Assembly (NCBI GenBank): GCA_963712115.1
Contig: CAVQGX010000046.1
Location: 89,282 to 153,281 of the forward strand
Source of the DNA: an uncultured delta proteobacterium
Lineage (GTDB): Bacteria; Desulfobacterota; Syntrophobacteria; BM002
Length of the DNA stretch: 64,000 bases
Direction: 5' to 3'
Under the pieces are notes generated by a model. That model did no database searches. It saw only the letters and a list, made by a program, of their open reading frames with translations, and was not told the origin of the DNA. This document shows positions 6,391 to 55,199 of the stretch, in pieces. Both the position numbers and the translations under genes were made by a program. The number at the start of each line of letters is the position of its first letter. The stretch's first letter is position 1.

Positions 6391-6610
6391 CACCACAGAG
6401 ACTCACGGGAGAAAAATCCGAAATCCGAATATCTAAATCCGAAACAAACTCGAATTTCCGAAATCCAAATGACCAAAACACCGGACCTGTCTCTTTGGGT
6501 AGTCATGTTTTGAACATTTGAGCATTCGGATTTTAGATTTGTTTCGTGCTTCGGATTTAGGATTTAGGATTTTGAGTGTACACCCCCTATGTAATCTCTG
6601 TGTTTTCTCC
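6391..6610. repeat. Nested inverted short-tandem-repeat hairpin (outer CACAGAG-type arms, inner AAATCCG heptamer arms)
   Basis: aaatccgaaatccgaatatctaaatccgaaacaaa ... tttgtttcgtgcttcggatttaggatttaggatttt; near-identical family at 33702-33930. Confidence 0.8.
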
Positions 6611-7753: not shown

Positions 7754-7888
7754 CCCTCTTTAGCTGTCAGCCATCAGCTGTCAGCAAGAAGGCAGAAAAC
7801 TTGCATGACTAACAGGGGATTCTTTCGGACTATTCATATCATAGTTTTTCCTGAAGGCTGAACGCTGATCGCCGCGAAGGAGACAAAA

Positions 7889-9748
7889 ATGGCAAATTCA
7901 GTGGTGGACAAAAGAGATGTCAAATTCGTGCTCTATGAGCAACTCGACATCGAACAACTGAGCAACACCGCCAAATATGCAGAGTATTCCAAGGAAATGT
8001 ACGATATGGTCCTAGAGCAGGCATGGAAATTGGCGGAAAATGAAATGGAGCCCGCTAATAGTAAGGGCGACCGGGATGGCTGCGTCTGGGAAGACGGCAA
8101 GGTGAGGGTTCCTGAGTCCTTTCATCGTCCTTATCAGATGTACCGAGAAGGTGGTTGGCTCCCCATCTCAGAAGATGTGGAAGCGGGTGGCCAGGGTTTC
8201 CCGGTGGTCATGGGATTGTCAGCCGTCGAAGCCTTCGGCGCCGCGAACTTAGCTCTTTTTTTGTACCCCGGCCTTACGCATGGGGCAGCAAGGCTGCTTG
8301 AGGTCTATGGAACCGAGACGCAAAAGCGCAATTTCATGGACAAACTATACAGCGGCGAGTGGTGCGGTACCATGTGCCTCACTGAACCTCAGGCTGGAAG
8401 CGATGTTGGCGCCTCTCGCACCAAGGCAGTCCCTAATCAGGACGGCTCTTATAGCATCTCCGGCACAAAAATCTTTATCTCCTGTGGCGAACATGACCTA
8501 ACAGAAAATATAGTCCACATGGTGCTGGCCCGGATCGAAGGTGCCCCCCCTGGGACCAAAGGTCTCTCTCTGTTCATTATTCCCAAACTACGCCCAGAAA
8601 ACGGACAACTGGTGGATAACGATGTTAATTGCGGCGGTATCGAGCACAAGATGGGAATTCACGGCTCCTCCACCTGCACTTTGAACTTTGGCGAGAATAA
8701 CAACTGCACCGGCTACCTTTTGGGCATAGAAAACCAAGGAATGCGCATAATGTTTCAGATGATGAACGAGTCCAGACTCTTTATAGGGATGCAGGGCCAG
8801 AGCCATGCCAGCGCCGCCTTCCTGTATGCTCTGCAGTACGCCAAAGAGAGGACCCAAGGTTCCGATGTCAGCCGGTTAAAGGATCCCTCTGCGCCCAAAG
8901 TGGCCATCATCAATCATCCCGATGTGCGGCGGATGCTCATGTTTATGAAGTCTGTAACAGAAGGGTTGCGGGCTCTACTATATTATGTAGGCTTTTGCGA
9001 AGACATGGTCCGTTCCACCGAAAGCGACGAGGAGAAAGAGAAGTATCAGGACTTTATTGATATCCTCATCCCGGTCTGCAAGGCCTACGGCAGCGACATG
9101 GGATTCAGGGTTTGTGAAACCGCTATCCAGGTACTCGGTGGCTATGGCTATTGCCAGGAACATCCGGTGGAGCAATTTTTGCGAGACTGCAAAATCGCTT
9201 CTATTTATGAGGGTACCAACGGAATACAGGCCTTGGACTTAGTAGGTCGCAAGTTGGTGGTCAAGAGAGGACAGCTTTTCAAACGACTTATAGGGGAAAC
9301 CGAAGACTTCCTTAAGTGGGCCCGTAAAAATTTTGAACTGCGGGAACTAGTGGCCACCTTCGAAGCTGCCCGGGAGCAACTCATTCAAGTGACCAAGTAC
9401 TTTGGTCTCAAAGGAATGACTGCAGACTATGTCGTACCCCTTCTTTATGCTACTCCCTATTTGGAATTGTTTGGGGATGTTGCCGTGGGGTTTATGCTCC
9501 TGTGGCAGGCGCTCATCGCCCACAGGCGTCTGCAGGAGATCTATGTTGATGCAGGAGCCAAAGATGGAGAATCGCAGAAGGAGGTCTTGGCCACAAACCG
9601 TAGCGCTGCCTTTTATCGAGGCAAGGTAGCTTCAGCTGAATTCTTCATTACTAATGTCCTCTCTCTGTCTAGGGGCAAGGCCAAAGCAATTATGAGCGGG
9701 CAGCGGGCAGCAGTTGACATCCCAGAGGAGTCATTCGCTCTGAGCTGA
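7889..9748 (+). CDS. Acyl-CoA dehydrogenase (long type)
   Basis: GTMCLTEPQAGSD, GTKIFIS, QVLGGYGY, IYEGTNGIQ. Confidence 0.93.
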   Translation: MANSVVDKRDVKFVLYEQLDIEQLSNTAKYAEYSKEMYDMVLEQAWKLAENEMEPANSKGDRDGCVWEDGKVRVPESFHRPYQMYREGGWLPISEDVEAGGQGFPVVMGLSAVEAFGAANLALFLYPGLTHGAARLLEVYGTETQKRNFMDKLYSGEWCGTMCLTEPQAGSDVGASRTKAVPNQDGSYSISGTKIFISCGEHDLTENIVHMVLARIEGAPPGTKGLSLFIIPKLRPENGQLVDNDVNCGGIEHKMGIHGSSTCTLNFGENNNCTGYLLGIENQGMRIMFQMMNESRLFIGMQGQSHASAAFLYALQYAKERTQGSDVSRLKDPSAPKVAIINHPDVRRMLMFMKSVTEGLRALLYYVGFCEDMVRSTESDEEKEKYQDFIDILIPVCKAYGSDMGFRVCETAIQVLGGYGYCQEHPVEQFLRDCKIASIYEGTNGIQALDLVGRKLVVKRGQLFKRLIGETEDFLKWARKNFELRELVATFEAAREQLIQVTKYFGLKGMTADYVVPLLYATPYLELFGDVAVGFMLLWQALIAHRRLQEIYVDAGAKDGESQKEVLATNRSAAFYRGKVASAEFFITNVLSLSRGKAKAIMSGQRAAVDIPEESFALS

Positions 9749-13323: not shown

Positions 13324-13831
13324 AGGGACTGCCTCGTACACAAACGCGGGGTCCTGCCACTAGGCACTAGGAACTATGCACTAAGCACTACAACTCAGAA
13401 CGAGGAATTGGTAACTCTTAATATTAAATTCGAACTTTCAAGCACACAAAAAATCCCGAGCAACAGATTTGGGATGTGTTCTATGTGATGTGAGATTCAA
13501 CATTTCTCTCTGGATTTCGTATCCCAGATCTCACATCCATCTTGGGGTTGTCTCAGATTTTTCTGCGAGTTCCGCTTTCTTGCCCTTGGTGCCTAGTGCT
13601 TACTCCCTAGTGCCTAGTAGAAATCCCTGCCTGCTGCGGGCTGTCTAGCATCCTCTCCACAAATAATCGTTGAAAATCCATCGGCTATATGCTAAAAATC
13701 TCACATTTATTCTCTGGGTATCCCCATTAGTTGAAAAAGAACGGATTCCATGTTAGAAGTCCGAGGTGCGGCTTTCGTGTTACACTAGCTTTATCTCTAT
13801 TAAATCAGCATTTTAAGCGGATAAGGGGAGG

Positions 13832-17568: not shown

Positions 17569-17758
17569 TAAATGGAGTATTGGAGTGTTGGAGTAATGGA
17601 GTGTTGGAAGAATTTCAGATCTCGAGAAATTTTTTATCTCATTACTCCAGTACTCCACTACTCCATCACTCCAGTGCTGTCGTGGTCGGCTGAAAGACAA
17701 ACCCGTCAAACCTCCTCTTTCGGAGATACGGAGACGTAGGGTAGAGACTGGATACAAC

Positions 17759-21445: not shown

Positions 21446-21544
21446 TCGCAAAGCGCATGCCGCTTTGCTCCAGCTAACAGCGGACAGCAGACAGCTAGCA
21501 GTTTCCTTTTATCTGCAGCCGGCTGCATGCTGCCTGCTGACTCC

Positions 21545-47326: not shown

Positions 47327-47686
47327 TTTGTTTACCTCGCCAATTAAAATACATAAGCAAACTTTGGACTATTATCTTATACTGTTGTATTTGTTTGTCA
47401 TCATAAACTTTTATTGCTGCCCGCTGCCCCCTGCGAGCTGTCAGCTGAATACCCTCTTGCTTTTTTCAAGGAGGCCATTATTTTATAGAGCGGTCAGCTT
47501 TCTGATAAATGTCTAAAATGAACTAAAATTTTCAAAATGCCTAAAGTTCTTAAGTAGAGAATTGCTTAAGAAGTCTATTTATGAGCATCTTTGCCCTGTT
47601 GGTGTAAAATTCCCTGACCGTTCGAAGCTTCTTTTTTTACTGAAAGCTGATAGCTGACAGTTATTACTAAGGGCTATTACTAAGGG

Positions 47687-48171: not shown

Positions 48172-49338
48172 ATGATCAGAGCCGAGGTAAAAAAAATAGA
48201 AAATTGGATTAGGGAAGTACGCCGTGATTTCCACAAGCATCCGGAACCGCGGTTCAAGGAAACACGCACGGCCGCGGAAATAGCAGAACACCTACATAGT
48301 ATTGGCCTCGAGGTCAAGACCGGTGTGGGCGGCACTGGGGTGGTGGGCTTGCTTCGTGGTGCTTCTCCCGGCAAGACCTTCGCTATCCGGGCCGATATGG
48401 ACGCCCTGCCAATTGCAGAAGAGACCGGTGCCGATTACGCCTCATGTAATCCTGGTTTTATGCACGCCTGTGGCCATGATGCTCACATGGCCATGGCTCT
48501 AGGCACGGCCCGGGCGCTGGCCTCGTCCTCTGGACCTATAAGCGGCCAAGTCAAATTTATTTTCCAACCTGGAGAAGAAGGTGGACACGGCGCCAGAGAG
48601 ATGATTTCCGACGGAGTTCTAGAGAACCCTAAAGTGGACACTATAGTGGCAGCTCATGTTGCTCCCCTCATACCATTCGGCACGGTGGGCATCTATCTGA
48701 GAGAAGCTTGCGCCTCTGCAGACGCCTTTTACATCAAGATCACCGGCAAGGGCGCCCATGCAGCCTATCCCCACTTGAGCCAGGACCCGGTGTTGGGAGG
48801 TGCTCATTTAATTACCGCTATTCAGTCTATAGTGAGTCGCAACACCGATCCCAGTCGGGGTCTAGTTGTCAGTGTCACCCAGGTTCAGGCTGGTACTGCC
48901 ACCAATGTCATTCCCGAAGAAATAATGATTGCAGGCACGATTCGGGCTCTCAACGATGATGTGCGTAGGCATGCCATGAAGAGATTAGAGGAAATGGCGA
49001 TCTCTATCTGCCAGGCTCATGACCTTCGTAGCCAAGTTAGCTACGGTGACGGATACCCCATTATGAGAAATCACGAGCCCATTAGCCGCTTCGTTGCCGA
49101 AGCAGCCAGCGAAATGCTTGGAGAGGATAAAGTGATCATCCGCCAACCTAAATTCGGCAGCGAAGACTTTGCTTATTTTCTGGCACGCTGCCCTGGAGCC
49201 GGCTATGAACTCGGGTGTTCCAATGAGGCCAAGGGCATAACCAACATGCTGCACACCCCTCAGTTTGAAATTGACGAAGATGTATTGCCCCTTGGCGTTG
49301 AGCTCTACCTCCGCTTAATAGAAAAGTATTTTCAATAG
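48172..49338 (+). CDS. M20D amidohydrolase
   Basis: RADMDALP, MHACGHD, FQPGEE, SEDF. Confidence 0.92.
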   Translation: MIRAEVKKIENWIREVRRDFHKHPEPRFKETRTAAEIAEHLHSIGLEVKTGVGGTGVVGLLRGASPGKTFAIRADMDALPIAEETGADYASCNPGFMHACGHDAHMAMALGTARALASSSGPISGQVKFIFQPGEEGGHGAREMISDGVLENPKVDTIVAAHVAPLIPFGTVGIYLREACASADAFYIKITGKGAHAAYPHLSQDPVLGGAHLITAIQSIVSRNTDPSRGLVVSVTQVQAGTATNVIPEEIMIAGTIRALNDDVRRHAMKRLEEMAISICQAHDLRSQVSYGDGYPIMRNHEPISRFVAEAASEMLGEDKVIIRQPKFGSEDFAYFLARCPGAGYELGCSNEAKGITNMLHTPQFEIDEDVLPLGVELYLRLIEKYFQ

Positions 49339-49388
49339 CTTACAGCTGTCAGCCGTCAGCCATAGTAAATAAGACAAGGAGGGGCACC

Positions 49389-49742
49389 ATGAAAGATTTC
49401 AAGAAGCTAAAGGTGTGGGAGAAGGCTCATCGTCTGACTTTGGATGTTTATCAAACGTCCGCAACCTTTCCGCGAGAAGAGTTATACGGCCTAACTAGTC
49501 AAATTAGACGTTCATGTTTATCAATTCCAACCAACATAGCTGAAGGTTGCGGCAGGTGTAGCGACACAGACTTTGCTCGCTTCTTGCAAATCTCTATGGG
49601 TTCATCGAGCGAAGTCGAATACCTTCTAATCCTCAGTAGAGACTTGCAGATATTAACCAATGATGACTACGAGACACTCAGCGACGACGTTATCCAAATA
49701 AAGCGCATGCTTACCTCACTCATCAAAACCTTGAGAAGCTGA
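49389..49742 (+). CDS. Four-helix-bundle protein (23S rRNA IVS / bAvd-like family)
   Basis: KLKVWEKAH, FPREELYGLTSQIRRS..SIPTNIAEG.GR; AAGGAGG RBS; flanked by inverted heptamer repeats. Confidence 0.92.
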   Translation: MKDFKKLKVWEKAHRLTLDVYQTSATFPREELYGLTSQIRRSCLSIPTNIAEGCGRCSDTDFARFLQISMGSSSEVEYLLILSRDLQILTNDDYETLSDDVIQIKRMLTSLIKTLRS

Positions 49743-49773
49743 TAGCTGATCGCTGACGGCTGATAGCTAAAAT

Positions 49774-51754
49774 ATGATTTCATTTGACAAAGTAAGTAAA
49801 TCCTTTGCCAAGCAAGACATTCTGCAGAACTGTTCCTTTCAGCTAAATGCTGGGGAGCGGGTGGGCATTATAGGAGCGAATGGTTCAGGTAAAAGCACGG
49901 TCTTCAAACTCCTCCTAGGCCTTGAACATCCTGATCAAGGTCAGATTTCCAAACCCAAGAATCTTCGTCTGGGATATTTACCTCAAGACGTCCTGCAATT
50001 TAGTGGTAAGACGGTCCTAGCTCAGGTCATGGATGTGGCAGAAGAAGTCCTGACAATCGAGAGAGAGCTCTCTTTGCTGGCCGACCTATTGGAAAAACCC
50101 CTGCCTGGAGCAGAGTTGGCCCATGCAGCTCAGCGCCAGAGCCGGCTGCTCGAAGAATATGAGAGGCTGGGTGGCTATGATCTCGAGGCCAGGGCCCGCA
50201 AGGTGCTCGGCGGCCTTGGCTTTGACTGAAGACGATATGCATAAGCCGGTTGAAGAGATGAGTGGCGGCTGGGCCATGCGAGTTGCCTTAGCCCGAATCC
50301 TCCTGGCAGAGCCAGATCTAATATTGCTCGACGAGCCCACCAACCATCTTGACCTGGACTCACTCATTTGGCTCGAGGACTATCTTGTTCAGACCCCGTC
50401 TTCACTTATGCTTGTTTCCCACGATCGGGTGTTTCTGGATAATGTTGTCCATAAACTCCTAGAATTGGAAAATGGACAGATAACCTCATACCCGGGAGAT
50501 TTCCAACATTACCTGGCAGAAAAGGAAAAAAAGATACAAAGCCAATGGTCTGCCTACAATAATCAGCAAGAGCAGATTCGTCAGGTAAAAAGGTTTATAG
50601 ATCGCAATCGAGCTCGCAAAGATCGGGCCCGCCAGGTACAAGGCCGCATTAAAATGCTGGACAAAATGGCCCTGATCAAACCGCCCACCTCCCCTGATCG
50701 CTTTTCCTTTACCTTCCCACCCCCGTCTCGTGCACCAAAGGTAGTGCTGGAACTGAAGAAAATTACCAAGAGCTATGGAGAGCAGGCTGTTTTCAGCGAT
50801 ATGGACCTTACCATCCAGCGAGGGGACCGGGTTGCACTTCTTGGTCCCAACGGAACAGGCAAGACCACCCTGGTCAAATTAATGGCAGGAGTACTTGACC
50901 CAGACAGCGGCCAACTGTCGCTCGGCAGTGGTGTTAGTATCGCCTATTTCGCCCAGCAGCAACTGGAGCTTCTCAATCCGCAGCAAACCGTGCTGGAATC
51001 CCTCAGTTCTATGGCCGGAGACATGGGTCAGGGTCAGCTGCGAAACCTTCTAGGCGGTTTCCTTTTCCGCAACCAGGAGGTGGACAAGCGTGTTTCGGTT
51101 CTCAGCGGCGGCGAGCGTAGCCGACTTCTCCTCTGTCAAATCCTGGTGCAGCAGGCAAACTTGCTCTTGTTGGATGAGCCCAATAACCACCTGGATATTC
51201 AAGGTCGCCGCGTTCTGGAAGAGGCTTTACAAGCATACAGAGGTACTATCTGTCTGGTGAGTCACGACCGCCACCTGATTAATGCTGTGGCAAATAAAGT
51301 TCTAGTAATTACAGAGGGGAAGGCAGAGACATTTCCTGGTAATTACGATGATTTTCAGGCGATCTGGAAAAAGCGCCTCCAAACTCCAGAGCTCGAGACC
51401 CAACCACCTTCGGACCAGAGTGGAACCACTATAGTTTCCAGGAAAAACAAAGAGCAAAAGAGATTGGAAGCCGCCTGGCGGAACGAACTCTCCCGCATGA
51501 AAGCACCACTTGCCCAACGAATGGAAAACTTGGAACAGACCATCGAGGGAATAACCTGCCGATTAGAGGAATTAAACCATCTTCTGGCGCAACCAGACAT
51601 CTATGAAAATGGTACTGACATAAAGCAACTGAATCGTGAATACACAGAGCTGAAAAGGTTCTTAGAGGAGCACAACCGGCAATGGGAGGAGACTGCTATA
51701 GAAATGGAAGCACTGGAGGAGTCCTTTTGGCAAGACAAGACACTTGTGAATTAA
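49774..51754 (+). pseudogene. ABC-F family ATPase split by a +1 frameshift near 50224
   Basis: ORF1 Walker A GANGSGKS ends LGGLGFD*; +1 frame continues TEDDM..MSGGW..LDEPTNHLD and a second ABC domain. Confidence 0.85.
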
Positions 51755-53915: not shown

Positions 53916-54036
53916 CTGCCAACTGGCAGCCGGCAGGAGGCAGCTAGCAGCGAAGGGATCTGACCCAATTGTAATTTAGATTAATATTCGGTTCGTCGGC
54001 TGAGAGCTGACCGCTGAAGGCTAATAGCTAAAAACC

Positions 54037-54130
54037 GGAGAGATGGCCGAGTTGGCTGAAGGCGCTCGCCTGCTAAGCGAGTGTAGGGTGAAAAGCTCTA
54101 CCGAGGGTTCGAATCCCTCTCTCTCCGCCA
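54037..54130 (+). tRNA. tRNA-Ser(GCU), probable integration site
   Basis: GGAGAGA/TCTCTCC acceptor stem, CT-GCT-AA loop, long variable arm, CCA end. Confidence 0.95.
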
Positions 54131-54142
54131 TTTCAATAACTT

Positions 54143-54170
54143 AGCCCAGGTTAATCCTGGGCTTTTTTAT
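54143..54170 (+). terminator. Intrinsic terminator after tRNAs
   Basis: AGCCCAGG-ttaat-CCTGGGCT-TTTTT. Confidence 0.8.
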
Positions 54171-54185
54171 TCTCTTTACCTTCCT

Positions 54186-55199
54186 CTAGTGTGCCACTTT
54201 GCCGTTTAAAATTCTCACAACCTCGTACACACTCGCCTCGATGGAGTGCAAATAACTCTCCGTGGTGGCCTGCCTCCGGTGGCGTAGAAGTTTCTGGATT
54301 TGCTTCATGGAAGCCTTGCCAGAATCATTCAAAAGGCTTGAGACATGGTGCCGGATCGCATGAAAGCCAAAAGGCTTTACTCCTGACCTCTTGCAAAGCT
54401 TTCCCATCATGTAACGCAATTGATGGCCACTGAATTGGAACACGTGAGGACTTGTCTTGTCTCTCCGCTTCCAGCGATTATGAAGCACATTATGGAGAGT
54501 GTCATTCATGGGAAGATAATCTTCCTGTAATTCACCGCCCCTACGCTTCCTAGTATAAAGTCTCACCCAGCGTTGCTCAAAGTTCACATCCTCCCAAGTT
54601 AGTCTTACGACCTCACTCCTGCGTGCTAAAAGATGGTAAAGCGCATCCAGAAAGTCCCTCTCATCCACGGTAGCTGCTATCCGCACTTTGTCAATGTCCT
54701 CAGGAGGTGGAACATAAGGTCGATACGGTTCTTCTGGATACTTCTCTATGGGATCGCATGGGTTTCTGCCTTCTATGACCTCCTGGCGGAGGCCCCAGTT
54801 GTAAAGTGCCTTTAGATCACGGAGATCCCTGTTCGCAGTCTTGGCACCATTTCTTGCCGCCCTAACATTTAGATAATCGCTGATCTGTTTAGTAGTAATT
54901 ATCGCAACTGGGACGTCAGCGCCCAAAGAAGCCAAAAATGACCGATAAACAAAAGCCTTTTGCCGAACAGTATTAAGTCTCATCCGCGCTTTTATGTCAT
55001 CAAGATACGCTGTCGCCAACTCCTGAAAGGAGGGCATAGGGATCTCTTTTGGCGGAAGGGCGTTTAACTCTTGTCGCTTCTTGGCCTCCCATAGCACCGC
55101 TGCTCGCCTGGTCTGAAAGCCTTCTTTTTTGATCCGTTCGCCCTGGTGCTGGAACTTGGACACCCACCATCCTCGATTTTTGCTCTTCCAGACGCCCAT
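54186..55199 (-). CDS. Tyrosine recombinase/integrase
   Basis: Arm-binding N-terminus (KEGFQTRRAA), ARRSE, HAIRH, LRH...TTESY. Confidence 0.92.
   Translation of the reverse strand: MGVWKSKNRGWWVSKFQHQGERIKKEGFQTRRAAVLWEAKKRQELNALPPKEIPMPSFQELATAYLDDIKARMRLNTVRQKAFVYRSFLASLGADVPVAIITTKQISDYLNVRAARNGAKTANRDLRDLKALYNWGLRQEVIEGRNPCDPIEKYPEEPYRPYVPPPEDIDKVRIAATVDERDFLDALYHLLARRSEVVRLTWEDVNFEQRWVRLYTRKRRGGELQEDYLPMNDTLHNVLHNRWKRRDKTSPHVFQFSGHQLRYMMGKLCKRSGVKPFGFHAIRHHVSSLLNDSGKASMKQIQKLLRHRRQATTESYLHSIEASVYEVVRILNGKVAH

Follow-up and report, generated by a model that had tools for sequence, protein, structure and literature searches.

A four-helix-bundle gene between inverted heptamer arrays at an amidohydrolase/ABC-F junction: a probable intervening-sequence-type hairpin cassette outside rRNA

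This work concerns a 64,000-nucleotide (nt) stretch of contig CAVQGX010000046.1 from an uncultured delta proteobacterium (hereafter the window) and, within it, a small gene of the four-helix-bundle family that lies between an amidohydrolase gene and an ABC-F ATPase gene and is enclosed by inverted arrays of tandem heptamers. We consider it probable that this locus is a hairpin cassette of the intervening-sequence (IVS) type, set in an operon junction and inherited, transferred and lost as a unit. Across many phyla, the same layout looks like a widespread, self-contained insert of a type so far described only within rRNA genes. The proposed unit would consist of a 5' heptamer array, a leader with its own ribosome-binding site, an open reading frame (ORF) and a reverse-complement 3' array that supplies the stop codon. 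Its arms would pair in the transcript, closing the insert in a stem and re-apposing the host stop codon and the next host start. By analogy with 23S elements whose ORF belongs to this protein family, the stem may be an RNase III substrate. Loss of the unit would leave either hairpins with arms only or arm stubs. Co-transcription with the neighbours, arm pairing in vivo, cutting by RNase III, any benefit to the host junction, the role of the protein and the mode of movement are what we infer.

The genome of the window (G000: 4.9 Mb, 70 contigs, 48.9% G+C, assembly 94.4% complete) carries the following features at this locus, in window coordinates.

48172..49338, plus strand: M20/M25/M40 amidohydrolase, the upstream host gene (ORF list; Peptidase_M20, E 1.1e-40; TIGR01891, 382.9 bits against a cut-off of 153.75)
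49344..49360, plus strand: 5' arm, 2.7 tandem heptamers of AGCNGTC type, partner of 49752-49768 (sequence; fold)
49361..49388, plus strand: leader of 28 nt with a Shine-Dalgarno-like GGAGGGGCAC motif immediately 5' of the ATG (sequence)
49389..49742, plus strand: four-helix-bundle gene (23S rRNA IVS protein / S23p family), 117 aa (ORF list, profiles)
49737..49768, plus strand: 3' array, 4.6 tandem heptamers of AGCTGAT type, holding the gene's TGA stop (Tandem Repeats Finder, TRF; sequence; fold)
49774..51754, plus strand: ABC-F ATPase, the downstream host gene, in two overlapping ORFs, 49774..50229 and 50123..51754 (ORF list, profiles)

The 117-aa protein is a full-length member of PF05635/TIGR02436. 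PF05635 aligns to residues 5-110 over profile positions 1-106 (E 8.4e-39, 132.5 bits, cut-off 33.8), TIGR02436 gives 132.8 bits (cut-off 24), and the nearest solved structures by sequence are 2GSC (E 9e-19; XCC0516, an entry with five chains) and 2RLD (E 1.5e-9). Both arms were also delimited by TRF at period 7 (49343-49361, 2.7 copies; 49737-49768, 4.6 copies), and the stem joins 49344-49360 with 49752-49768, 17 nt on each side, in 16 Watson-Crick pairs and one G-U, exactly as the original prediction from the bare sequence had described. That prediction had also put the TGA inside the right arm; the stop (49740-49742) does lie within the 3' heptamer array, but 10 nt ahead of the paired 17-nt segment. 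When 49330-49780 is folded as RNA (-124.7 kcal/mol, z -2.36), the minimum free energy (MFE) structure and the centroid both contain the 17-bp terminal stem. The arm pair and the gene occupy the entire gap between the host genes: 5 nt separate the amidohydrolase stop TAG (49336-49338) from the 5' arm, and the ABC-F ATG stands 5 nt past the 3' arm. Simple scans of 49000-50000 found no sigma-70-like site on the plus strand and no terminator-like site, so that the cassette is most likely co-transcribed with its neighbours. Outside the arms (49339-49343 and 49769-49773) no direct repeat that could represent a target-site duplication is visible.

Since heptamer arrays are common in G000, a control for chance pairing was needed. 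The two 260-nt flanks of a segment were compared, and their best complementary match without gaps gave the arm score (match +1, mismatch -2). The window gene scores 14, a value reached by none of 600 random 315-bp segments of the same genome, four of which reached 12. PF05635 has 14 matches in G000, three with an internal stop and at least three others partial; 11 of the 14 score at least 14 and 12 at least 12, and their arms are tandem 7-9-mers whose unit differs locus by locus. The family also occurs in Bacteroides thetaiotaomicron, the control of this profile search. Among relatives (40 genomes, one locus each), 22 of the 29 scorable loci scored at least 14. A wider sample was drawn with a six-protein alignment as query and one genome per species; it returned 80 loci, 75 of them scorable and 58 full-length, from Bacteroidota, Chloroflexota, Planctomycetota, Nitrospirota, Acidobacteriota, Desulfobacterota, Gemmatimonadota, Actinobacteria, Proteobacteria, Firmicutes and archaea. 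Here 47/75 loci scored at least 14 and 55/75 at least 12, against 1/137 and 6/137, respectively, when the windows were moved by 900 bp in the same loci. The enrichment of arms around four-helix-bundle genes, which had been proposed as a check, was thus found in the own genome and in the relatives alike. A chance origin of the flanking complementarity is excluded by these controls. That two neighbouring arrays merely coincide in a repeat-rich genome, with the gene an ordinary resident between them, is therefore extremely improbable, even if heptamer arrays are very common in G000 and the stem has only 17 bp.

Tandem-repeat coverage in the 58 full-length loci is 25% over the 100 nt immediately 5' of the gene and 21% over the 100 nt immediately 3' of it, and falls to 0-4% in bins beyond 200 nt. 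As the repeats concentrate at both ends, the arrays of this wide sample are a property of the ends of the gene and not of the genome at large. Over 20 relatives, array density and gene count were also correlated (Spearman 0.71), which is not independent evidence because one family carries both traits.

The layout was measured in 38 armed loci of the wide sample. The 5' arm follows the upstream stop by a median of 3 nt (31/37 within -11..+25), the leader is about 46 nt long, the cassette stop precedes the 3' arm by a median of about 7 nt with frequent overlap, and between the 3' arm and the start of the following gene the median distance is 18 nt. In many paralogues a AAAGGGGCAC-type motif, related to the GGAGGGGCAC of the window, stands just ahead of the ATG. 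Both neighbours are co-directional with the gene at 41 of the 58 loci and both opposite at 3, the others being mixed (12) or having no downstream ORF called (2). The suggestion that arms and ORF form one cassette between genes was thus supported, both by orientation and by the tight fit of the arms against the stop of the upstream gene and the start of the downstream one. The arms also have a polarity: the 5' arm is rich in G and in AG (G 31%, C 16%), with AG exceeding CT in 59 of 80 loci and falling below it in 11 (10 ties). The 3' arm is rich in C and in CT; by symmetry, this polarity holds for both strands.

A second family, GxxExxY/PDDEXK_3 (PF13366), shows the same layout. Its five copies in G000 have arm scores of 14, 12, 11, 11 and 9, with tandem-repeat arms in those scoring 14, 12 and one of the 11s. 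In relatives (L211-L238), 15/23 loci reached 12 and 11/23 reached 14, against 0/39 shifted controls at 12, so that the flank check proposed for this family also gave a positive answer. The higher-scoring arms mostly belong to one related family, with CGCAGAG / CACGAAG-type units. Three cassettes of this kind lie in G000 outside the window:

C46:9416-9766: PF13366 cassette
C31:229316-229666: PF13366 cassette
C31:167808-168158: PF13366 cassette

The link with the intervening sequences of 23S rRNA, which had been suggested from the protein family, is direct in one locus. A relative of the same class (L101; G024:C79:2111-5434) has a 23S rRNA gene (Rfam LSU, 2534.6 bits) that contains an ORF of the family between arms made of tandem 8-mers, with a score of 23; it is a true 23S rRNA IVS with the architecture of the cassette. 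This location is found in 1 of 123 family loci, and BLAST with the 23S flanks of L101 matched none of the other 122. According to a study of Coxiella burnetii, the IVS in helix 45 has 428 nt, a terminal stem of 28 bp and an S23p ORF in its loop; RNase III cuts in mid-stem, and two to three tandem GACAGAT heptamers, in strain-dependent number, precede the ORF (Warrier et al., 2016; PMC4990558). As far as these descriptions go, the Coxiella and Leptospira 23S IVSs and the window element share the protein family in the loop, inverted termini that form a stem, and heptamers 5' of the ORF. The complementary termini of the window element likewise form an enclosing stem, of 17 bp in the MFE and centroid structures. 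Unlike the 23S elements, it is not inserted in a 23S helix (9, 25 or 45): it lies between two protein-coding genes, the amidohydrolase and the ABC-F gene, both of its arms are tandem arrays, and these arms abut stop and start codons. In the literature, with subscription journals and database family notes beyond reach, we found no paper on inverted tandem-repeat arms around members of this family outside rRNA.

Comparison of junctions between genomes bears on how such units may be gained and lost. The synteny of the amidohydrolase and ABC-F genes holds across the genus and family, with a gap of 435 nt in G000, 93 nt in G014, G004 and G010, 171 nt in G007 and G012, 210 nt in G017, 310 nt in G001 and 78-542 nt in other genera. 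The gene itself is found at this junction in G000 and G015 only. In G015 the same gene occupies the same site, preceded by a 5' arm of heptamers and a leader resembling that of G000; the contig stops within the gene, and another repeat element precedes its ABC-F gene. In G014, G004 and G010 the 3' array and a short 5' arm are retained and the gene is absent, whereas the 171-nt junction of G007 and G012 holds an arms-only hairpin of the PF13366-type arm family (CGCAGAG / CACGAAG). The comparison of this junction in close relatives, as originally proposed, thus returned arm remnants or an arms-only hairpin in these five genomes without the gene. A tree of the flanks places G000 with G012, G007 and G010, and G015 in a different clade with G004, G014, G001 and G017. 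Two independent gains would be the parsimonious reading of this tree; repeated loss is at least as likely, because arm remnants occur at both of the junctions compared.

The second of these junctions carries a cassette on contig C18 of G000 (8195-8660) that G000 shares with G014 only. The sister of G014, G004, has a direct joint between the two arms, arm stubs remain in G016 and G007, and the other genomes carry other arrays. One junction further on, an arms-only hairpin is present in G000 and another member of the PF05635 family in G012 and G010, while in G007 and G016 the junction holds arms-only hairpins of the window arm family. From these comparisons it follows that cassettes and hairpins turn over at junctions, with arms left behind after loss; the empty hairpins that had been predicted as remnants of ORF loss are indeed present in relatives without the gene, the direct joint of G004 included. 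Sister genomes can have different arm families at one and the same junction, and arms are therefore replaced together with their contents.

Arms and gene also appear to travel together over longer distances. The nearest homologues of the window protein (50-63% identity), from Desulfobaccales, Melioribacter, Pirellulaceae, Gemmatimonadaceae and Anaerolineae, have TCAGC/TTAGC-type arms as in the window, and the 3' array contains the stop codon in 4 of the 6 nearest-homologue loci listed. Over 48 loci, the sharing of arm 6-mers was correlated with protein identity (Mantel r 0.17, reached by none of 2000 permutations), a small effect. A strict pairing of protein lineage and arm unit was rejected: mean identity was 0.45 with shared arm 6-mers and 0.44 without, and the correlation is weak. 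Our initial reading of the arms as a property of the site was dropped in view of the repeats at gene ends, the turnover of arms and the homologues with window-type arms. The best reading is that arms and gene are passed on, by inheritance and by transfer, as one unit that is frequently lost.

Several observations nevertheless weigh against an IVS-type cassette. G000 contains 2115 period-7 arrays in 274 canonical unit families, against 14 genes of the family, so that arms are not exclusive to PF05635 genes. Ordinary genes are bracketed by inverted heptamer arrays as well (among them rplR, lspA, ndhG-like, mraY-like, glnA-like and plsY-like genes). Scores below 14 were obtained at 28/75 loci of other phyla, at 7/29 in relatives and at 3/14 copies in G000. 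The stem of the window has 17 bp, which is short beside the 28 bp reported for Coxiella. RNase III domains (PF14622, PF00636) were not found in G000, in an assembly that is 94.4% complete; RNase III genes were detected in 9/12 genomes of the same genus and in 8/8 other relatives searched. Lastly, mismatched positions between the arms of 80 loci, read on the sense strand, comprised 46 G-U, 42 A-C and 106 other pairs, beside 2016 Watson-Crick pairs. Selection on a sense RNA would be expected to favour G-U, and the lack of such a bias weighs against an RNA stem; the pairing at RNA level that had been proposed thus found no RNA-specific signal in this test.

This last result is what one would expect if the arms acted at DNA level only, as cruciforms or hairpins that serve recombination, template switching or an enzyme working in trans to insert, invert and delete the loop, with RNA pairing a by-product. 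Other data point the same way: the inner segment of about 45 nt at the empty amidohydrolase/ABC-F junction is inverted in G010 (L018) relative to G014 (L021) and G004 (L020), an outcome that would be expected of recombination between inverted arms; the arms are joined directly in G004 at the second junction; the same junctions are occupied in genomes that are not sisters; and arm polarity is, by symmetry, the same on both strands. We nonetheless regard action at DNA level only as quite unlikely. The co-orientation with neighbouring genes is strong (41 against 3), and the flush fit to stop and start codons suggests that constraints act on the transcript. The cassettes have no linked recombinase, and a search of G000 for RVT_1 gave no match. 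For the known 23S rRNA relatives, processing takes place on the RNA (PMC4990558).

The abundance of arrays in G000 bears rather on the possibility that the arms belong to the host, as pre-existing intergenic heptamer hairpins, abundant in this genus and with some host role, into whose loops four-helix-bundle genes simply insert, or in which they survive best. Neighbouring arrays of like unit are inverted in 209 cases and direct in 26, with gaps mostly below 100 nt, and the 176 arms-only short hairpins of G000 have the polarity of the cassettes (5' arm AG-rich in 124, the reverse in 28, 24 ties). The arms that persist without the gene at the orthologous junction, and the housekeeping genes bracketed in the same manner, would also be explained. 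This possibility is unlikely in our view, since the 58 loci of other phyla have tandem repeats at the ends of the gene and rarely elsewhere, the nearest homologues in other phyla bear the same arm family, and arm families differ between sister genomes at one junction. We thus retain the cassette transmitted as a unit, arms included, as the favoured reading.

Searching the whole of G000 for inverted pairs separated by 120-1600 nt of loop yielded 377 clusters, 102 of them with tandem-array arms. Fifteen of the tandem-array pairs have loops of 350-520 nt, and 9 of these 15 enclose the PF05635 family. Of 40 further ORFs bracketed in this way and compared with Pfam, 35 belong to known families, most of them ordinary ones. 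The rplR gene (L18; C33:131141-131732) is bracketed by inverted AGCNATC-family arrays as in the window, and an arms-only hairpin adjoins it. The original description of a window-wide element was therefore at once too narrow, the arrays being spread over the genome, and too wide, housekeeping genes being bracketed too. Its further occurrences of the arm family in the window are all present:

7761-7785 / 7851-7872, no strand assigned: arms-only hairpin of the window arm family, loop of about 65 nt (sequence; TRF 7762-7785 and 7851-7872)
47640..47661, no strand assigned: lone array of the window arm family (sequence)
53999..54030, no strand assigned: lone array of the window arm family, immediately 5' of tRNA-Ser (sequence; tRNA scan)

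Short tandemly repeated heptamers (STRR) are known from cyanobacteria, and the arms of the window share their characters, namely 7-nt tandem units, an intergenic position and many families per genome. G000 had no match to Photo_RC and is not a photosynthetic cyanobacterium. Heptamer direct repeats located before start codons have been described in Beggiatoaceae, Cyanobacteria and Bacteroidetes (PMC4679880). STRR and heptamer-rich genomes resemble G000 in their intergenic tandem heptamers, their many families and their patchy phylogenetic spread; the arrays of G000 differ from these direct repeats in forming inverted pairs that enclose a specific gene family.

Comparison with mobile elements gave partial likeness. 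Like MITEs (miniature inverted-repeat transposable elements) and integron cassettes, the unit is small, has inverted ends or hairpin-forming sites and is present or absent at given junctions, and its arms-only forms resemble non-autonomous derivatives. It departs from MITEs and from transposons with terminal inverted repeats in that the arm sequence differs among the 14 copies in G000 and no target-site duplication is visible. An integron attC site lies on one side of the cassette only and needs the integron integrase, while the window unit has arms on both sides; the only integrase noted is a tRNA-linked phage-type one (54186..55199), an integron integrase not having been otherwise searched for. 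The window protein also belongs to the four-helix-bundle fold family of Avd from diversity-generating retroelements, with weak matches to bAvd (21.6 bits) and DivGenRetAVD (23.2 bits); these are below the cut-offs of 40 and 80 bits, respectively, and no reverse transcriptase adjoins the gene. RVT_1 was not found in G000, at 94.4% completeness, and an Avd-like role with a retroelement is therefore unlikely here.

Genes of the family have been noted between operon genes before. Zhang et al. (2013; PMC3936711) report 18 23S_rRNA_IVP genes in cas loci, one of which, in Pleurocapsa, lies between cmr3 and cmr2 at 86 nt and 6 nt from its neighbours. The position between operon genes is that of the window gene. 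There it is taken as a functional association with CRISPR-Cas, and the passage on these genes mentions no flanking repeats, whereas the neighbours in the window are unrelated housekeeping genes.

PF05635/TIGR02436 genes are among the commonest small bacterial genes of unknown function, and the family is named for a context held by 1 of 123 loci. If the architecture described here is family-wide, the family gains a defined genetic unit with testable parts (arms, leader, stop in the array), the presence of its genes between unrelated operon genes, cas operons included, is explained, and part of the unexplained intergenic heptamer arrays acquires a concrete origin. The cassette would then offer a natural case of an operon that carries an insert at a position that may spare its neighbours. 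More speculatively, S23p genes, and perhaps GxxExxY genes, might be the loaded, autonomous forms of a very large, so far unrecognised class of hairpin elements with tandem heptamer arrays as arms, of which the thousands of arms-only hairpins and lone arrays in heptamer-rich genomes would be non-autonomous or decayed derivatives; the protein would bind the arrays or help to copy them, and 23S IVSs would be rare landings in rRNA. We put this forward tentatively, as an extension that is unlikely to hold as a whole.

Some minor observations complete the description. Contigs of related organisms have one base fewer at 50227 (X1, 82.7 of 93.5 depth; X2, 70.8 of 70.8), so that the ABC-F gene of the window has either a frameshift or an assembly error. 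Public sequencing runs held at most 35% of the sampled words each, all as contigs. In four of these runs, aligned to the window, two joints, each in a single contig, skip the ORF (49352>49746 in X4; 49359>49741 in X1); they were set aside because of 85% likeness and a repeat family of very high depth, and may derive from other hairpins. Contigs from RNA libraries of one study span 49336-49759 at about 94% identity; they are no proof of transcription or of ends and were not used either. At 13358-13618, 6414-6572, 17573-17675 and 21477-21539 of the window, TRF located additional tandem 7-8-mer arrays in inverted pairs, built on units of other sequence. The lone array at 53999 is followed by tRNA-Ser(gct) at 54037-54130 and by a phage-type integrase gene at 54186..55199 on the minus strand; array, tRNA-Ser and integrase together (53999-55199) are the usual signature of an island border. 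A separate MITE-like family, whose terminal repeats (TAGCCCGGATATTTCATGAAT type, about 20 nt) are conserved and whose loops measure 200-400 nt, has many copies in G000 and genus-wide; it is exemplified by L006 2433-2660 and bears no relation to the heptamer arms.

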